Part shown: in pieces, positions 1,002-13,973 of the stretch
How the letters are laid out: the number at the start of each line of letters is the position of its first letter
How positions within the stretch are numbered: position 1 is the stretch's first letter
Made by a program: the position numbers and the translations under genes
The notes under the pieces: model-generated
Database searches by the model: none
Told to the model about the DNA's origin: nothing
Seen by the model: only the letters and a program-made list of their open reading frames with translations
Assembly (NCBI GenBank): GCA_020348985.1
Contig: CP070761.1
Location: 562,934 to 587,697 of the forward strand
DNA length: 24,764 bases
DNA from: Candidatus Thorarchaeota archaeon
Lineage (GTDB): Archaea > Asgardarchaeota > Thorarchaeia > Thorarchaeales > Thorarchaeaceae
Reading direction: 5' to 3'

Positions 1002-3323
1002 TCAGATCCAATCTGCGGTCTCGAGTTTTGTTGGGAGGTATTCATCAGTTAGATACTCAAAGGAATGAGCCGCGAATGACTGAATCTCTGCCTTCTCTTT
1101 GAGTTTGAGCATAAGTCCTAGGTCCTTAACCCATTCCTTATTGACCTGCACGAAGGGCTCCTTCAGCATGTCCTTGACTCGCTTCGTGTCAGTTGGTGTC
1201 ATAGGAATTCGGACGGCCTTGGGGATGTTGTACTCATCAAGATCACGACTGAGAACCCCCAGCAACTTAAGCTCGGGAGTTGCGATGAATGGTGACTCAT
1301 AGCTTAGTCTCTTACTTCCACGCAAGAAGACAGAATAGATGTAGTGTCCGTACGGATCGCTGTCAACCAGAGCAAATGCTGGGATTTCGAGCTCTTTGAC
1401 TAACGTCTTGAGAAACGCTCTTGTAGCAATGTCACCAGATCCTTTACCCGTCAACACGATACAGGGCTGCCGATTCCAGAACTTGGCCTCTGCGAGTCTC
1501 ATGACTGCAGCATCCTTTTCTGACAGTATGATATATTCAGCATCACTCTCAAGAATCTCAACTTGATCAAGAAACGGGGTAATGGCCCATCCTCCAGTTC
1601 CCATCCTAGTGAGGTCAATCCTGTCGCCGCCATCCTGGATAACTACTCGCCCCATTGCTGAGCCTCGTGCAGATGCTACAACGTGAATGCTGTCACGAGT
1701 TGTCTGAATCATTGATGCCAGGTCTTCAATGATCTTGTCGGAGTACTTCTGGTCACGAAACAGATTGACATCACTGTAGAAGACCTCTCGTTTCGTGGCA
1801 TGTAGATTCGATTTGAGTAGCTTGTATACAATTTCCATGACCCTTGCTGTGCGAGTAGCATCTACAACAGATGCCAGTGAGTGATACGGACGCGAGATTG
1901 TCCGCATGCCTAACAGCAGGAGGTCCCTGATCTCATCCCACACAATATTGTCAGCTGATCTACTCGGTATTTCGAATACTGGTCTACCAGACATCATGGT
2001 CTCGTGGAGAATCTCCATTGCGATTTCCACAAGCTTCTCGCTTGTTTCATCGGCGGTCAATGCCACGACTTCAACTGTGTCTTGGATTGGCGCCTCTGGA
2101 TCGGGAATTGCGGCTTTCTTCTCAGCTTCTTTCCATTTCTTTTTCATTTCCTTTGTGACTTTCTTGACAGACTCTGGAACCGGGAGCCCAGACCTCCCTC
2201 GCTTGATTTTCAGTCTCTTTCGTCCAACTCTTCTGGCTGGAATCTCCTCTTCTGGAGCTGGCATTGGTTCGACTTCGGGCTTGACGACTTCTACCTTCTT
2301 CTTGGGTTTCTTTGCTTTGGTTGGTTTGGGCTTGGCCTCGGCAGGCTTCTCTTCCGGTGGTGGTGCCTTCTTTTCAGAAACGACCTCTGGAGCTGATTCT
2401 CCAATAATGCTTTCGAGTTGCCGTCTCTGTATCAAATCTTTCGCAGCATAAACAACTTCAGATGCACGATCAATGCTGAGACCTCCAACAGCACTCGATA
2501 CTCTTCTCGGATCAGCTCTGGAAAGCCTAGCCACAGTATCGTAGCCTGATGATTCGAGCTTGATTGCAAGCTTCGAACCAACTCCAGGCACATCGGCTAG
2601 AGCAAACGCATGAGATGGCGGTGCTTCAGCTTCATCTTCGGGAGCATGCTCCGGTTTCTCTTTGGATTTCACAAGTCTTTTGGCTGCTGTTACTAGATTC
2701 TTTGCTCCGTCTTGGCTGACTCCGTCCACTTTCTTCGCGACAGATGCGTAGCGCGCTTTAGAGAGTTTCCAGACCGAAACGTATCCAGCTTTCTTGAGTT
2801 TTTCCTCCAGCTTTGGACCAACACTCGGAAGATCTCTGAGTGACACATCGAGGTCGGGCTCAACCGGTACCTCTTTCACGACTCTCTTCACAGCATCTGT
2901 CGTTTCAGGAGCTAGTGTCTTCTTTGCCAACTTCTTCTTCGGAGCCTTCTTCTTTAGTTCAGGTTTCTTCTTGGCAGCTGGCTTTTTCTTTGTGGGTTCC
3001 TCTTCCGGAGCCACCTCTTTCTTTGGTTCAGGCTTGTCCTTTTCAGGTGTCTTCTTCTTAGCAGCCGGTTTCTTCTTGGGAGCCGCCTTCTTCGGTTCAG
3101 GTTTATCCTTTTCAGGTGTCTTCTTCTTAGCAGCCGGTTTCTTCTTGGGAGCCGCCTTCTTCGGAGCAGTCTTCTTCGAGGTCTCTGGCTTCTTTGCAGC
3201 GCTTTTCTTGACTTTCGGCGTTGCAATGGCTTTCTTGGTCTTCTTCTTGTCTCCACTGTTCAACATTGTGTCCAGACTTGCTTGGACGACTTCGGGCTTT
3301 TTCTTGCGTTTCTTTGAGCTCAT
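1002..3323 (-). CDS. top6A: DNA topoisomerase VI subunit A (Spo11 family) with long N-terminal Lys-rich and HhH extension
   Basis: The C-terminal ~350 aa contain the 5Y-CAP catalytic Tyr motif TKREVFYSD, Toprim SEKDA, LTGKG and DSDPYG. The start overlaps the top6B stop (ATGA). Confidence 0.96.
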   Translation of the reverse strand: MSSKKRKKKPEVVQASLDTMLNSGDKKKTKKAIATPKVKKSAAKKPETSKKTAPKKAAPKKKPAAKKKTPEKDKPEPKKAAPKKKPAAKKKTPEKDKPEPKKEVAPEEEPTKKKPAAKKKPELKKKAPKKKLAKKTLAPETTDAVKRVVKEVPVEPDLDVSLRDLPSVGPKLEEKLKKAGYVSVWKLSKARYASVAKKVDGVSQDGAKNLVTAAKRLVKSKEKPEHAPEDEAEAPPSHAFALADVPGVGSKLAIKLESSGYDTVARLSRADPRRVSSAVGGLSIDRASEVVYAAKDLIQRRQLESIIGESAPEVVSEKKAPPPEEKPAEAKPKPTKAKKPKKKVEVVKPEVEPMPAPEEEIPARRVGRKRLKIKRGRSGLPVPESVKKVTKEMKKKWKEAEKKAAIPDPEAPIQDTVEVVALTADETSEKLVEIAMEILHETMMSGRPVFEIPSRSADNIVWDEIRDLLLLGMRTISRPYHSLASVVDATRTARVMEIVYKLLKSNLHATKREVFYSDVNLFRDQKYSDKIIEDLASMIQTTRDSIHVVASARGSAMGRVVIQDGGDRIDLTRMGTGGWAITPFLDQVEILESDAEYIILSEKDAAVMRLAEAKFWNRQPCIVLTGKGSGDIATRAFLKTLVKELEIPAFALVDSDPYGHYIYSVFLRGSKRLSYESPFIATPELKLLGVLSRDLDEYNIPKAVRIPMTPTDTKRVKDMLKEPFVQVNKEWVKDLGLMLKLKEKAEIQSFAAHSFEYLTDEYLPTKLETADWI
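3025..3162. repeat. Near-perfect 69-bp in-frame tandem duplication within top6A (KKAAPKKKPAAKKKTPEKDKPEP x2)
   Basis: The unit ggttcagg...gagccgccttcttc begins at 3025 and again at 3094. The copies differ only at a couple of synonymous positions. Confidence 0.93.
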
Positions 3324-5365
3324 TCAGATTCCACCTCGAGCACATCTTCGCCATCTTCTTCTCCCATGCCTAGTGGTACATCGGCCACAAGATCTGTTCC
3401 TCTTGTATCGGTTTCTGTCTCTTCTAAGTCCGTGAGAGTCTCGAATCCAGTAATTGCATCTCTAATCTTTCCGGCAACAATCTCACTGTCGAAATCACAG
3501 CTTGGATCTCCATCGTTTGCGATGCTAACCAAACTCTCAGCAAACTGGTCTGCGTACATAGCCAAAATGCCTGCTCGTTTTGCTTTTCGTCGGGCGGTCT
3601 CTCGACGAGTAATGAATCGCCTGAACTTTCTCCCTGCGTCCTCAAGGGCGAGTTTTATCTCTCTGAGCATGACTTCGTCTTCCGCCAGCGCTTGCTTACT
3701 CTGCCCCTTGAACATAACGTGAACATAAGCCCCTGCCACATGTATGAAGACCATTATCGGTCCTCTTGGTATTCCGTTGTCAAATGTGGCCACCTTGTAG
3801 TTCTTCCAGTTCACGGAAGCCGTGGCCTTCCAAGTGGCACAATCGCTGTTGTCTCGCAGCTTGGGAACACGATTGACAAAACGCCAAAGAACCATCGGTG
3901 CAGACGTGGCATTCTTTATTTCACCACCATACGCTATACAGGCTTCTACTGCGAAAGAAAGCCCCTTACCAGAGGTCGGCTTTCGAGTGACAGCCGTGAC
4001 GAAGTCAGGATTATACGCCATCTGAATTGTTTGTTCAAATATCTCTTCACCGACGGGGACAACAGTGTCTGTCGGAGGCGCAATGTAATCTTGATTGGAA
4101 AAGATCTTGTACAGATACTCTACCTCAGTCTTTGACAACCCGTCAGTCGGAGTCCTAGCGGACAGAACGTCTAGATGACGTCGCCTTAGCTCCTTGTTTG
4201 TGTCTGATACTATGGTCCTAGCTTTGTTGGGACTCAATCTACAGAAAGCTCGAGTAAGAAATCCCATTAGGTCCCTTTCCCTGGTCTCACGCAACAGGTC
4301 CTGAAACTCACCTATTCGGATGCTGGCTGGATGCGGTTGCGCGTACTTCGGTTCATCAGGAAATGCCTTGACTCTCCGAGGATAGATGAAGACCTTGCCA
4401 TAGGGATCAATGAAGACTAGCGTGACATGAGAGTTCAGGAGTGAAGCCATCTCTGCGTAAGTGTCCGCGTAGCCCCTTCTGTATTGTATGTTGAGATAGT
4501 TGAGCTTGATGTATGTACCATTCTCAAAGGGAAGGTCCATGTCAATTGGTCCTCCCACGTATTCTTTCGTGTTCGCAGTGGTTGTGTAGAAGTCTGCTAC
4601 AGTTGTTACTTCAGAAGTGAATCTCTTGGAAACTGTGAAGATCGGTTTCCCTGTTGTATTCTGCGAATCACTGAATGCCGAGGGCGCTCCGAAGCCCTGG
4701 CTTCCTCGTGTCTGTCTAAGCCGCTCCGATTTGCTCGAGGCAAGGTAGATCCCGTACTTCTCAAGATCGGATGCGATCATTCCTACGCCATTGTCAAAAC
4801 ATGTGAATTCGTATACCTTGAATCCTTCCTCATCATCGATTGGAACAAGGTCCGGCATGAACACCTCTGTTATCTGAATGACAGCAAAAGGCTCTCTCTT
4901 CTTTATTAGGCTACGGAACGGAACTAGGAACTTCCTGAAAGTTGTAAGACGGTCTTCCAAACTTTCTCTCCGTCGAGCTGGTATCTCTACTTCCTTTCCT
5001 GCTCGTATGTCTCGCTCAAGTTGTTTGCTAATAGCAATAGAGTCCTCCAACGTGGGCTCAAGTTTCGATCTTATTTCATCCACTATTTCGGGTTCCAGAT
5101 TGTCCTTTAGACGAGGTCGCTTGCTTGTCTTCCACCACCATGACTCAAGTGCGTCAATAGCATTGTCGAGGAACTCGATTGCGTACTGAGTGTGTTTGTT
5201 CAGTCCGGTCTCAAACCCGACCAGCTGAGTTCTCTTTCGCATGAACTTCGCAATCGTTCCCTGTCTGATGTCGCCTGAGTCTCCTGCAGGTGGAAGTCCT
5301 GTTTGCTCTGACTTCTTATTCGACTTGCCCGACGTCTTCTTAGTTTTCTTTCCCGACGGACTCAA
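3320..5365 (-). CDS. top6B: DNA topoisomerase VI subunit B
   Basis: GHKL motifs EFLDNAIDA, FDNGVGM, QTRGSQGFG and NGTYI. Transducer RFVNRVP and FKGQSKQ. TTG start with an upstream GGAGTG SD, adjacent to top6A. Confidence 0.96.
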   Translation of the reverse strand: MSPSGKKTKKTSGKSNKKSEQTGLPPAGDSGDIRQGTIAKFMRKRTQLVGFETGLNKHTQYAIEFLDNAIDALESWWWKTSKRPRLKDNLEPEIVDEIRSKLEPTLEDSIAISKQLERDIRAGKEVEIPARRRESLEDRLTTFRKFLVPFRSLIKKREPFAVIQITEVFMPDLVPIDDEEGFKVYEFTCFDNGVGMIASDLEKYGIYLASSKSERLRQTRGSQGFGAPSAFSDSQNTTGKPIFTVSKRFTSEVTTVADFYTTTANTKEYVGGPIDMDLPFENGTYIKLNYLNIQYRRGYADTYAEMASLLNSHVTLVFIDPYGKVFIYPRRVKAFPDEPKYAQPHPASIRIGEFQDLLRETRERDLMGFLTRAFCRLSPNKARTIVSDTNKELRRRHLDVLSARTPTDGLSKTEVEYLYKIFSNQDYIAPPTDTVVPVGEEIFEQTIQMAYNPDFVTAVTRKPTSGKGLSFAVEACIAYGGEIKNATSAPMVLWRFVNRVPKLRDNSDCATWKATASVNWKNYKVATFDNGIPRGPIMVFIHVAGAYVHVMFKGQSKQALAEDEVMLREIKLALEDAGRKFRRFITRRETARRKAKRAGILAMYADQFAESLVSIANDGDPSCDFDSEIVAGKIRDAITGFETLTDLEETETDTRGTDLVADVPLGMGEEDGEDVLEVESE

Positions 5366-5693: not shown

Positions 5694-6452
5694 ATGGCGC
5701 GTAGGAACATTATCAGAGTTTTAGGAGTGCCAGGCATTCCATTGATTGACGAAGATTGTGATCTTGTCCAGGCTATTCTCTCAGCTATTTCAACTTCTGG
5801 GATTCAGCTGATTGATGGCGACATTCTAGTTTTGGCGCAGACAGTCATCTCAAAGTCTGAGGGGCGCGTTGTACACAAGGACTCTGTGGAGGTTTCACCT
5901 AGAGCCAAAGAAATTGCAGATGTGAACGGATTCGACCCAGTGCATGTCGAGCTTGCTTTGCGAGAATCAAGGAAAGTTCTGCGAACTGATGGTGTGCTCA
6001 TTACGGAGAACTTGAATGGACTTGTGTGCAATTTCAGTGGCGTTGATAGATCAAACGCTCCTGAGGGATACTTCGTTCTTCTTCCTGAAGATCCAGACAA
6101 TAGTGCCAGACGAATCCTAGAGGAGATGGAATCCAGAACCGGACTTGCGCTTGCAGTTGTCATAACCGACACCCAAGGCAGACCTTGGCGCAAAGGTTCC
6201 ATCAACATCGCAATTGGCTGTGCTGGAATCAACGCTTTCAAACACAATCGCGGACTTGAGGATCTCTATGGCCGAATCATGCAGAGATCAACCGTCTGTC
6301 AGGTAGATGAAATCGCTTCAGCCGTCGAACCAATCATGGGTCAGGGAGCGGAAGGAATACCACTTGTCATAATTAGAGGGTATGACTATGAAACAGGCCC
6401 AGAACGCGGAAGCGATATTCCGCGTCCTGAAGACGAAGACTTGTTTAGATGA
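5694..6452 (+). CDS. cofE: Coenzyme F420-0:L-glutamate ligase
   Basis: Motifs GIPLI..DL, DGDILVLAQTVISKSEGR, SGVDRSN, LLPEDPD, VITDTQGRPWRKG, DLYGR, DEIAS and EGIPLVIIRG. Confidence 0.95.
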   Translation: MARRNIIRVLGVPGIPLIDEDCDLVQAILSAISTSGIQLIDGDILVLAQTVISKSEGRVVHKDSVEVSPRAKEIADVNGFDPVHVELALRESRKVLRTDGVLITENLNGLVCNFSGVDRSNAPEGYFVLLPEDPDNSARRILEEMESRTGLALAVVITDTQGRPWRKGSINIAIGCAGINAFKHNRGLEDLYGRIMQRSTVCQVDEIASAVEPIMGQGAEGIPLVIIRGYDYETGPERGSDIPRPEDEDLFR

Positions 6453-12217: not shown

Positions 12218-13069
12218 GTGGTCGAAATGATATTCAAAGAGGGGACGTACACCGGATACGATGGCACTCGAATGTTCATGGCAAAGTGGATTCCCCAAAG
12301 CGAAGATCCCAGAGCTCTATTGATTGCCGTCCACGGACTTGGGAGCCATGGTGGGGACATGAGGACTATTGGAGAATTCCTAGCAGAGCGGGGCATCGCA
12401 GTTTTCGCTCCTGATATGAGAGGTTTCGGCCATTATTCTGGGACTAAGGGTCATGTGATGAAGTACGAAGAGTACATTGAGGATATGCAGAACATCGTTA
12501 TGGAGGTCAAAGACGAATTCAAGAATAAGCTTACTTTCCTTCACGGAAGTTCTCTTGGCGGCCTACACGTCATTTGGTATGCACTGACTTATCCCCGTGT
12601 CACTGACGGAATCGTTCTATCATGTCCAGCAGTTGCCCAGAGTGTTGAGGTTGGGTGGGGGAAGCTGTTCATTGCGAAGATTCTTTCCCTGCTGAACGTA
12701 AAACGGTACTACACAGGGTATGTTCCTGTAGAAGACGCCACGCGAAACCCTGATGTTGTTGAACGCCACAAGAAAGATCCACTACGATTTGAAGGGGTGA
12801 CTCCCAGATTTGGAGTGGAGGTCCTAAAGGCAGTCAATCGGGCTTTGAAGATGGGTCCCTCAATTCTGGTTCCCATTCTCTACCAACAGGCTGGTGCCGA
12901 CAAACTTGTGTCACCAGAGAAAAGCAAGCAGTTCTTCGACAGCATTGAATTCAAGGACAAAGCTTGGATTCTCTACGATGGCCTCTACCATGAACTCCAC
13001 GAGGAACCAGAGAGTGACAGAGTGTTGACTGACCTCTATAGTTGGCTTGACCACCGAATGCCTACATAA
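12218..13069 (+). CDS. Alpha/beta hydrolase, lysophospholipase/monoacylglycerol lipase family
   Basis: Motifs VHGLGSH, DMRGFG, nucleophile GSSLGG, ADKLV and YHELH. Confidence 0.92.
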   Translation: MVEMIFKEGTYTGYDGTRMFMAKWIPQSEDPRALLIAVHGLGSHGGDMRTIGEFLAERGIAVFAPDMRGFGHYSGTKGHVMKYEEYIEDMQNIVMEVKDEFKNKLTFLHGSSLGGLHVIWYALTYPRVTDGIVLSCPAVAQSVEVGWGKLFIAKILSLLNVKRYYTGYVPVEDATRNPDVVERHKKDPLRFEGVTPRFGVEVLKAVNRALKMGPSILVPILYQQAGADKLVSPEKSKQFFDSIEFKDKAWILYDGLYHELHEEPESDRVLTDLYSWLDHRMPT

Positions 13070-13130
13070 TCTGGCTTTTGGGCAGAGTAAAAAGGCACCG
13101 TGCCTGACATACTAGGTTGAGCGTGGTCTT

Positions 13131-13973
13131 ATGGAGCCAGAGGAAACTACCTATTTGGGACATGATGACACTGAGATGCTGATGAGGGTTTGGAGGCCAG
13201 AAACGTCAAACCCAAAGGCGATTGTAGTAGGCATTCATGGGCTTGGCAGTCACAGTGGACTTCTCTCTTTTGTCGCTGAGGCTTTCGCGACCAATGGATA
13301 TGTGTTCTATGCACCAGACTTGAGGGGCTTTGGAACATTCCCCGGCAGGAAGGGACATGTTGACAGCTTCGACGAGTACGTAAACGACATGCATCGGTTA
13401 CTCGGGTACGTCCAGACTCTTGAGGAAACGAGCTCTACCGTCCTTTATGGCCATTCTCTTGGAGGACTTCACATTCTGCACTATGTGACTCGCCACCCTG
13501 ACATGGTTGATGCGATTGTTACGCCTTGTCCAGCAGTTTCAGACCGTCTTAAGATTGGTAGGGGGACTTTAATTCTAGCTTCACTGCTCTCTCGACTCAA
13601 TGTGAAAACCGTGTTCGACAATGGACTTGACAAGCAGCTCATTTCAAGAAATGAAGAGGTAGTAAAACGAAACATGGAGGATCCGTTGCGATATGACAAG
13701 GCAACCCCTCGCATGGCTACTGAAGGTTTCAAAGTTCAGGACGAAGTCTTCAACTCGGGCCACTTGATTACTGTCCCGGTTCTAATGCAGCAGTCTGGAG
13801 ATGACTTGATTCTAGTTCCCGAAAAGAACAAGGAGTTCTTCGACACAGTTGCATCTGAAGACAAAACGTGGAAGTTGTATGAAGGACTGTATCACGAGCC
13901 ATTCCAAGAACCCGGTGGCGAGCAAGTCCTGGCCGACCTGTTTGCATGGCTAGATGAGAGATTTCCCGGCTGA
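13131..13973 (+). CDS. Alpha/beta hydrolase, lysophospholipase/monoacylglycerol lipase family (paralog)
   Basis: Motifs IHGLGSH, DLRGFG, GHSLGG, DDLIL and YHEPF. Confidence 0.92.
   Translation: MEPEETTYLGHDDTEMLMRVWRPETSNPKAIVVGIHGLGSHSGLLSFVAEAFATNGYVFYAPDLRGFGTFPGRKGHVDSFDEYVNDMHRLLGYVQTLEETSSTVLYGHSLGGLHILHYVTRHPDMVDAIVTPCPAVSDRLKIGRGTLILASLLSRLNVKTVFDNGLDKQLISRNEEVVKRNMEDPLRYDKATPRMATEGFKVQDEVFNSGHLITVPVLMQQSGDDLILVPEKNKEFFDTVASEDKTWKLYEGLYHEPFQEPGGEQVLADLFAWLDERFPG

Follow-up and report, generated by a model that had tools for sequence, protein, structure and literature searches.

The A subunit (Top6A) of an Asgard-type topoisomerase VI encoded by a Thorarchaeota genome carries a long N-terminal arm, which probably tethers this vertically inherited enzyme to DNA and possibly also to the PCNA clamp. 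The gene, top6A, occupies positions 1002..3323 on the minus strand of a 24,764-nucleotide stretch of Candidatus Thorarchaeota archaeon DNA (assembly GCA_020348985.1, contig CP070761.1, positions 562,934 to 587,697), referred to as the window. The 773-aa product, arm included, matches its database entry at 100%. Among archaeal enzymes, topoisomerase VI is the relative of the family from which eukaryotes obtained Spo11; its cellular roles are poorly understood. The arm is, by sequence comparison, a lineage-specific addition of approximately residues 1–380 and comprises a short conserved tip, a lysine-rich tail, two helix-hairpin-helix (HhH) domains of the (HhH)2 type and a linker. We infer a tethering role from the DNA-binding type of fold and from published parallels. 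The reading frame shared by arm and core, the conservation of glycine and lysine residues in the HhH domains and the ATGA coupling of the gene to top6B indicate that the fusion is real and under selection.

Gene, catalytic core and N-terminal arm

The catalytic core spans residues 420–773 (1005..2066; all features of the operon lie on the minus strand). Pfam, NCBIfam and motif searches assign to it a 5Y-CAP winged-helix domain (TP6A_N, PF04406; residues 490–548, E 1.3e-19) and a Toprim domain (PF21180; residues 597–767, E 2.5e-53). The catalytic tyrosine of the REVFY motif, Y516 (nt 1776–1778), and the Toprim metal site, formed by E602 (nt 1518–1520) and the DxD residues D654/D656 (nt 1356–1364), are invariant across 63 homologues, and the catalytic residues are thus intact. 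NCBIfam Top6A profiles cover residues 420–773 only, and the best equivalog, NF003333, scores 298 bits, below its cut-off of 465. The NCBIfam Top6A equivalog models derive from other archaeal lineages, and the score is read as divergence of the Asgard type, which would still be a member of the family. The core shares its catalytic fold and motifs with canonical Top6A proteins, and its best match among solved structures is S. shibatae Top6A (2zbk, E 2.7e-54), followed by those of M. jannaschii (1d3y, 5.7e-39) and M. mazei (2q2e, 2.1e-33). Unlike the protein described here, the solved entries are 301–389 residues long and armless.

The gene for the B subunit, top6B (3320..5365), encodes an Asgard-type protein of 681 aa, identified by Pfam, NCBIfam and alignment, and lies directly upstream of top6A. 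The top6A start and the top6B stop overlap in an ATGA (3320..3323), the usual sign of translational coupling. In the class I loci of relatives (see below), the B gene is likewise found immediately 5′ of the A gene, either overlapping it or a few bases apart. Top6B features the transducer domain (Pfam, E 8.8e-43), scores 325 bits against the NCBIfam Top6B model, above the cut-off of 274, and has readable N-box, G1 and G2 boxes and WKxY motif. The presence of a GHKL-transducer partner indicates that top6A belongs to a true topoisomerase VI and does not encode a lone Spo11-like nuclease.

The arm starts with a conserved tip motif at residues 10–22 (PEVVQASLDTMLN; 3258..3296), which resembles a PCNA-interacting peptide (PIP) box without the aromatic pair. 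It reads VVQASLDTML here, and the family consensus is TVQ[AS]TLG[ED][VL][VL]; Q14 and L17 are each conserved in 62 of the 63 homologues and T16 in 61. The tip is embedded in a Lys/Ala/Pro-rich tail (residues 1–158; 2850..3323), which is predicted to be disordered from its composition and from AlphaFold2 (AF2) models, in which it has no secondary structure and a predicted local distance difference test (pLDDT) score of 35–51. Residues 1–150 contain 37% lysine, 14% alanine and 13% proline, and their net charge is +40. In the homologues the tail ranges from 22 to 158 aa, with a K+R content of 20–45% (median 39%); its composition is conserved, and its sequence is variable. The tail described here is the longest of the sample because of a tandem duplication of a 69-nt (23-aa) unit at 3019..3164 (2.1 copies, 96% identity), detected by Tandem Repeats Finder together with a looser 3.3-copy array at 2932–3161. 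This duplication is best regarded as a recent lengthening of the tail.

Lysine-rich stretches are also found elsewhere in the genome. Approximately 16 open reading frames (ORFs) hold a 50-residue stretch with at least 30% lysine, including those for an S25e-like ribosomal protein with KKKAPAKKKAE repeats, a HEAT-repeat protein and a TPR protein. An 893-aa HdrA/MvhD-like iron-sulfur flavoprotein has a Lys-rich C-terminal tail, an odd location. Lys-rich loci of the genome are L057 (C1:1909967-1910887), L058 (C1:1331941-1332618), L059 (C1:123758-124663) and L060 (C1:1260715-1263396).

Two (HhH)2 domains follow the tail. Domain 1 (residues 159–223; 2655..2849) is supported by Pfam, NCBIfam, an in-house (HhH)2 domain model and AF2, and domain 2 (residues 239–303; 2415..2609) by Pfam, the domain model and conservation. 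They are separated by an acidic, Pro-rich spacer (residues 224–238; 2610..2654) with a net charge of −5 over residues 225–240 and a pLDDT below 50. The Pfam profile HHH_5 matches two stretches (E 1.2e-13, best at 242–296), IMS_HHH matches residues 160–180, and NCBIfam profiles of the RadA N-terminus align to residues 160–219 and 242–303. The in-house model scores 87.7 bits for domain 1 and 80.6 bits for domain 2. Five helices are predicted by AF2 in each domain with a pLDDT of ~90, indicating that each is a complete (HhH)2 domain. Invariant residues in the 63 homologues are G169, Y181, R191, G201, S203 and K215 in domain 1, and P246, G247, G249, K251, G260, Y261, R266, R269, G281 and A287 in domain 2. 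Glycine and lysine residues at such hairpin positions are typical of contact with the DNA backbone, and by analogy both domains may bind DNA in a non-sequence-specific manner.

The best match of the di-HhH profile among solved structures is an (HhH)2 domain of topoisomerase V (residues 623–683, E 3.9e-12), and the next are the N-domains of Rad51/RadA, L32e, a Ski2-type helicase and Pol beta. Single AF2 domains superpose on RadA N-domains with 0.9 A over 58 residues. When the two-domain model was compared by Foldseek, the best E value was 3.5e-4 with a template modelling (TM) score of ~0.35, and topoisomerase V-DNA complexes were listed with weak E values; since the domains are flexibly linked, weak values are to be expected for the pair, and the single-domain superpositions are the informative ones. 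Within the genome, the HhH domain of ribosomal protein L32e is the nearest paralogue (75 bits), that of RadA ranking fourth (59.6 bits). RadA as the donor of the HhH domains is therefore not favoured, the L32e domain being closer. L32e (L053, C1:979028-979840) features an N-terminal (HhH)2 domain followed by a Lys/Pro-rich linker, which is the same cassette as in Top6A. An N-terminal (HhH)2 domain is also present in the RNA polymerase subunit Rpo6/RpoK (L055, C1:747797-748453), a fusion that looks unusual, and the occurrence of the same domain type on Rpo6 marks it as a general nucleic-acid module. A 525-aa protein (L054, C1:1542073-1543650) has a C-terminal (HhH)2 domain and no other Pfam matches.

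Between the HhH domains and the core lies a second charged stretch (residues 310–425: 21% lysine, 16% proline, 15% glutamate). It overlaps a Pro/Glu/Lys-rich linker (residues 304–376; 2196..2414), which is predicted to be disordered (pLDDT 35–49), and an SGLPVP motif with a helix at residues 384–404 (2112..2195; helix pLDDT 75–79), defined by conserved columns of the alignment. In the 120 two-domain homologues, the last HhH domain is separated from the core by a nearly constant distance of 103 to 134 aa. S378 is invariant, and G379, L380 and P383 are conserved in at least 90% of the 63 homologues. A reading of KIKRGRSG as an AT-hook was dropped, as homologues conserve SGLPVP and not the RGR core. 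Alignment pairs helix 384–404 with the N-terminal helix found in Asgard orthologues without an arm. An extra N-terminal helix of Asgard/eukaryote-type Top6A has been described by Brinkmeier et al. 2022 (PMC9665070). Because this helix is common to all Asgard-type Top6A proteins, the lineage-specific part is confined to approximately residues 1–380.

A preliminary description of the locus, based on the DNA letters and their translations, had proposed a Top6A with a ~420-aa N-terminal extension, in which a Lys/Ala/Pro-rich region of low complexity, two HhH units and a second charged linker precede a core located in the last ~350 aa, with the tyrosine near residue 516. Most of this picture holds. 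The extension is real, being in frame with the core and conserved in the family; Y516 and the limits of the NCBIfam profiles place the core as proposed; and the composition of residues 1–150 and of residues 310–425 agrees with the two charged regions. The HhH segments, starting with SLRDLPSVG at residue 161 (nt ~2843) and LADVPGVG at residue 242 (nt 2600), had been correctly located, and the domain search that had been suggested returned HHH_5 and RadA N-terminal matches for both, in line with their alleged likeness to RadA/Rad51. Two items needed revision, as each HhH unit is a complete five-helix domain and the lineage-specific part of the extension ends at ~380, where the helix common to the Asgard type follows. 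The PIP-like tip and the acidic tail of Top6B had been omitted from that account, and further topoisomerase VI operons lie outside the window.

Distribution of the arm among topoisomerase VI classes

A homologue search returned 248 database proteins at E ≤ 0.001. The 120 matches listed are 644–855 aa long, and all feature HHH_5 and both Top6A domains. They stem from NCBI, JGI, ENA and Logan assemblies, and most of the named ones are labelled Thorarchaeota, under names such as 'helix-hairpin-helix domain-containing protein' or 'SPO11'. In family f1 (Thorarchaeaceae), to which the genome of the window belongs, exactly one long-frame copy was found in each of the 41 genomes searched. Two HhH domains are present in 121 of 128 arm-bearing sequences, and the others carry 3, 4 or 7.

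Outside f1, no frame longer than 650 aa occurs among the matches listed from 251 Asgard genomes of 28 families, a scan that yielded 228 weaker matches besides those listed. The arm was not found in the sister family f2, where the orthologue is 420 aa long, nor in the sampled orthologues of 26 other Asgard families. In a library of 1.84 billion representative proteins, arm domains occur in 2 clusters only, both of Thorarchaeota type, among the best 150 Top6A relatives. In a 51-sequence Top6A tree, the arm-bearing f1 copies form one clade (Shimodaira-Hasegawa-like approximate likelihood ratio test, SH-aLRT, 100), with f2 as sister (SH-aLRT 99). The simplest reading of this distribution is one gain of the arm at the base of f1. 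Judged from the sampled families, the arm is a lineage-specific gain and not an ancestral eukaryotic trait.

Relatives within f1 carry up to three B-A operons, the products of which fall into three classes. Class I, which includes the pair in the window, is of the Asgard type, and in the copies examined A subunits with the arm are 709–953 aa long and B subunits 648–725 aa. In class II, which is of the euryarchaeal type, the A subunit is ~350 aa and the B subunit ~500 aa long, and the closest solved relative is that of M. mazei (218 bits); the solved canonical enzymes resemble this pair. Class III is divergent, with A subunits of 381–387 aa and B subunits of 505–597 aa. In the tree, the class I core falls into a clade of 28 rows (SH-aLRT 96) together with the standard Top6A of all Asgard families sampled, and phmmer scores are 280–707 bits within the Asgard-type clade versus 36–146 bits for the other two classes. 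Among the three Top6A classes, only the class I core matches yeast Spo11 (E 2.8e-6). The conserved Asgard Top6A has been reported as sister to eukaryotic Top6A/Spo11, with a second Top6A copy in several Asgard clades and a third in Thorarchaeia (PMC12680538, 2025). The multiple-copy pattern and the eukaryote-type core observed here reproduce that report, from which the sisterhood of the class I core to eukaryotes is taken. Class I proteins share with other Asgard-type enzymes (PMC12680538, PMC9665070) the clade, the extra N-terminal helix, the Tyr and Toprim residues and a Top6B with a GHKL insertion; unlike them, f1 alone adds ~380 residues comprising tip, tail, two (HhH)2 domains and linker. 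HhH domains are unmentioned in the text of PMC12680538, and a description of the arm was not found in the papers searched on topoisomerase VI/Top6A of Asgard archaea and Thorarchaeota. The three topoisomerase VI copies and the eukaryote-like core had already been published.

The same genome contains a complete class III operon on the minus strand (L003:4929-7747, C1:2258929-2261747). Its Top6B is canonical (558 aa; NF003218, 549 bits), and its Top6A is divergent (381 aa; Toprim scoring only ~70 bits). The operon, which is kept in relatives, is followed by a 223-aa gene product resembling a coiled-coil/winged helix-turn-helix protein. Family f13 has the class III type only. A class II top6B (L052:5599-7101, C1:1273598-1275100) is located at a contig start, with a run of N at L052:5648-5747, and is 49% identical to the copy of the same genus over residues 1–449. 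No class II top6A was found downstream, where a contig end and a 100-N spacer occur. The full class II pair (~500-aa B and ~350-aa A) is present in most relatives, and given the position of the class II top6B at a contig start, the top6A gene was probably lost at the contig break and not from the organism. A genome without class II topoisomerase VI is rejected, as its top6B is present, truncated by the contig end. GyrA was not found in this genome, and Thorarchaeota have been reported to lack gyrase (PMC9348778).

The window is exactly one contig (C1:562934-587697) without any N, and ends 1 kb beyond top6A. The genome (3,157,342 bases) consists of 132 contigs of a metagenome bin joined by 131 runs of 100 N, which rules out a single closed contig of 3.16 Mb and makes synteny across the joins meaningless. 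Upstream of the operon, in divergent orientation, lies a gene for CofE, F420-0:gamma-glutamyl ligase (5694–6452 of the window, plus strand). A similar 251-aa gene is found at the same spot in genomes G005 and G027; the neighbourhood is kept, and a functional link is not obvious. Two Asgard-type Top6A proteins of 463 and 387 aa, encoded 11 kb apart on one contig, were observed in G041 of family f16 (L042:862-2253 and 12273-13436). Each has its own Top6B, 2289 and 557 aa long, respectively, and the layout is the same in G058 and G050.

The Top6B partner and fusions at the same corner

The B subunit encoded in the window has a short basic N-terminal tail. All Asgard-type Top6B proteins have ~85–100 residues inserted between the N-box and G1 box of the GHKL domain, and their N-terminal strap reads IAKFMRKRTQLVGF versus the classical SPAEFFYRNR. 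The C-terminus of the window's Top6B is an acidic tail, the last 40 residues (3323..3442) having a net charge of −15. The charge of this region ranges from −12 to −18 in seven of eight f1 copies and is −7 in the remaining one; it is −7 in f2, and between −8 and +8 in other Asgard-type copies. Among the copies compared, none outside the arm-bearing family has a strongly acidic Top6B tail.

Asgard-type subunits of several other families have basic tails, located on the A subunit in f4 and f18 and on the B subunit in f2, f4 and f24. In f2, for instance, the 420-aa arm-less Top6A is paired with a Top6B carrying a Ser/Lys/Thr-rich N-terminal tail of ~50 residues (G112, L020:1103-3205). Family f27 features a 1113-aa Top6B with a C-terminal HHH_5 array (residues ~645–1109, E 1.1e-29), which is paired with an arm-less 403-aa Top6A (G123, L050:2074-5415). 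Very long Asgard-type Top6B proteins without HhH matches were observed at L033 (1082 aa), L049 (1165 aa) and L043 (961 aa); the 2289-aa Top6B at L042 is partly masked. In the solved holoenzymes (2zbk, 2q2e), the C-terminus of Top6B adjoins the N-terminus of Top6A. The fusions in f1 and f27 are consequently located at the same corner of the enzyme.

The arm as a tether and alternative readings

Published topoisomerases provide two parallels for an arm that holds the enzyme on DNA. Topoisomerase V of Methanopyrus kandleri is, like the enzyme described here, a topoisomerase with tandem (HhH)2 domains, 12 there and 2–7 here, an arrangement that is otherwise unusual; there, the array wraps around DNA, enhances activity and serves as a processivity factor (PMC9489208). 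It differs in its unrelated catalytic domain (type IC versus type IIB) and in the C-terminal position of the array, which is N-terminal in Top6A. In the latter, disordered linkers separate the domains, and a polycationic tail stands in front of them. Streptomyces TopA also has a Lys-rich, repeat-expanding tail of low complexity, and its lysine repeats stabilise the TopA-DNA complex and confer high processivity (PMC5714199). That enzyme is of type IA, with a C-terminal tail and neither HhH domains nor tip, and represents a parallel in principle, not in ancestry. The addition of DNA-binding parts is not confined to fusions. Plant topoisomerase VI is supplemented by BIN4/MIDGET and RHL1, which bind DNA. 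These extra partners (PMC9665070) are separate polypeptides with no detected similarity to the arm, and homology is not claimed.

Comparisons within the Asgard archaea add to these parallels. Among arm-bearing sequences, the median tail length decreases from 92 aa with two HhH domains to 61 aa with three, 46 aa with four and 28 aa with seven. This shortening of the tail, the recurrence of basic tails on other Asgard-type subunits and the HhH array of the f27 Top6B support a tether.

The following mechanism is proposed. The A and B subunits would be made together from one operon, and one arm per A subunit would exit the holoenzyme at the A-B junction, by the DNA gate. The Lys-rich tail and the two (HhH)2 domains would bind the DNA backbone without sequence preference, and an enzyme type that by itself is slow and distributive could, with its arm on DNA, gain affinity, tolerate more salt and remain bound for longer. 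M. mazei topoisomerase VI has been found to be slow and highly distributive (PMC8837201). The location of the acidic Top6B tail beside the basic arm, at the same corner, suggests that it may mask the arm when DNA is absent. Finally, the tip may hook the enzyme to PCNA and thereby to replication forks, where it could remove supercoils or precatenanes.

Docking of the tip on the clamp was modelled as a complex of the genome's own PCNA with Top6A residues 1–40. The predicted interface involves PCNA residues 40, 43–47, 123–128, 225–226 and 242–250 and Top6A residues 10–22, which corresponds to the classical PIP site; the three runs share at least 74% of their contacts, and the pLDDT of the partner is at least 57. 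The model scored 0.75 and the best control 0.00. Of 80 solved complexes, 58 attained this mark, as did 2 of 110 mismatched pairs, but PIP-PCNA complexes abound among solved structures, so that the score demonstrates likeness, not binding. With respect to the pattern Q-x-x-[LIM]-x-x-[FYW]-[FYW], the tip keeps Q14 and L17 near the terminus, and positions 7–8 are ML here and [VL][VL] in the family. On the strength of the model, docking of the tip on PCNA is a tentative possibility.

The caution attached to this model is one of several points that weigh against a tether to DNA and clamp. The tip lacks the aromatic pair, which is retained in the PIP boxes of the genome's two Fen1 copies, both ending in QSSLSDFF. 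The trade-off between tail length and domain number rests on related sequences and few independent events, and the association of acidic Top6B tails with the arm on few related sequences. (HhH)2 domains can also mediate protein contacts, and an internal start may give rise to an additional, arm-less isoform. The core is poorly predicted in the full-length AF2 model (mean pLDDT 54.9; predicted TM score 0.27), which is consequently silent on the position of the arm relative to the core. Moreover, relatives possess two further topoisomerase VI pairs, which makes the division of jobs among the enzymes uncertain.

Other readings of the arm are less probable. It could be mainly a docking or regulatory scaffold, an entropic spacer that carries short motifs such as the tip and SGLPVP and does not bind DNA. 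The presence of two short conserved motifs within variable disordered sequence, the near-constant length of the last stretch before the core and the modelled docking of the tip on PCNA would all fit. We nevertheless consider this unlikely, as the invariant hairpin glycines and lysines are of the kind that contacts the DNA backbone, the net charge is strongly positive, and docking alone hardly explains up to 7 HhH domains and an independent array on Top6B. Slightly less probable still is a linker-histone-like function, in which the enzyme would be architectural, its tail compacting DNA or bridging the histone fibres of archaea. The preliminary description had pointed in this direction, likening the extension to histone H1 and proposing a DNA-binding or condensing module. 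The likeness stands as regards composition, since residues 1–150 resemble the Lys/Ala/Pro-rich C-terminal tails of H1, with KKAAPKK-type repeats, and the tail grows by tandem duplication. It does not extend to the winged-helix globular domain of H1, which is not among the Pfam matches at E ≤ 1, nor to sequence homology, and residues 1–158 are predicted to be unstructured. A generic affinity module accounts better than a structural one for a tail of such variable length (22–158 aa), little of which is left in the forms richest in HhH domains. Unrelated proteins of the genome, among them ribosomal, HEAT-repeat and TPR proteins, have similar tails, and an enzyme with a catalytic role would probably not reach the copy number needed to compact a genome. 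DNA binding, suggested by tail and fold, is accordingly the part of that proposal we retain, as nothing points to condensation.

Chances are far slimmer that the arm serves recombination, with RadA-N-like HhH domains coupling a Spo11-like cutter to RadA as a proto-meiotic break machine. RadA N-terminal profiles match both domains, radA is found within a few kb of the class I operon in G075 and G005 (L006:10624-11556 and L010:1378-2421), and the class I core is the one that matches yeast Spo11. However, L32e and not RadA is the closest paralogue, Rpo6 carries the domain too, and among solved structures the HhH profile matches topoisomerase V best. In addition, top6A is coupled to the gene for a complete ATPase Top6B, as expected for a strand-passage enzyme. 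The match to topoisomerase V might in turn suggest that the HhH domains add DNA-repair chemistry, such as apurinic/apyrimidinic (AP) or deoxyribose phosphate (dRP) lyase activity, and K215 and K251 are invariant. Topoisomerase V itself shows such lyase activity in only 3 of its 12 (HhH)2 domains (PMC9489208); the domain matched here spans residues 623–683, and similarity is also high to the non-catalytic domains of RadA, L32e and NusA, which leaves this reading a shade less credible than a role in recombination. Least probable of all is an artefact of annotation or assembly, either a translation start near the core or a chimera. Low-complexity DNA does give long spurious frames on both strands, and the genome is a metagenome bin of 132 joined contigs. 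Against this, the single open frame recurs in 41 of 41 f1 genomes and in hundreds of independent assemblies, so that the chimera envisaged as a caveat in the preliminary description is not supported; conservation of the HhH domains is seen in the protein sequence, in the reading frame of the core, and extends to the N-terminal tip; the start codon overlaps that of the top6B stop; the alignment shows no methionine at the position where the f2 orthologue, which has no arm, begins; and the window contains no N.

The tether to DNA, with or without the clamp, can be extended to a bolder scheme, which we regard as doubtful. The enzyme would be the first type II topoisomerase hard-wired to the clamp, with a degenerate PIP tip on PCNA and the tail and (HhH)2 domains on DNA, so that a topoisomerase VI related to that of eukaryotes would move with the fork of a gyrase-less archaeon. 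The acidic Top6B tail, by mimicking DNA, would hold the arm closed while off DNA, and the independent HhH arrays on Top6B in other Asgard families would be alternative solutions to the same need.

The DNA does come from an Asgard genome, the source being a member of the Thorarchaeota, yet the relevance of the arm to eukaryogenesis, which had been suggested on that condition, is not borne out, given its absence from f2 and from the sampled orthologues of the other Asgard families. Being confined to one family, the arm has no bearing on the origin of Spo11 or of chromatin. DNA-binding arms on topoisomerase VI were apparently invented at least twice in the Asgard archaea, on different subunits and at the same corner of the enzyme, and armed topoisomerases VI thus represent natural experiments on the DNA tethering of a type IIB topoisomerase. 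If the tip does bind PCNA, a type II topoisomerase would be linked directly to the replisome in those archaea that are most closely related to eukaryotes.

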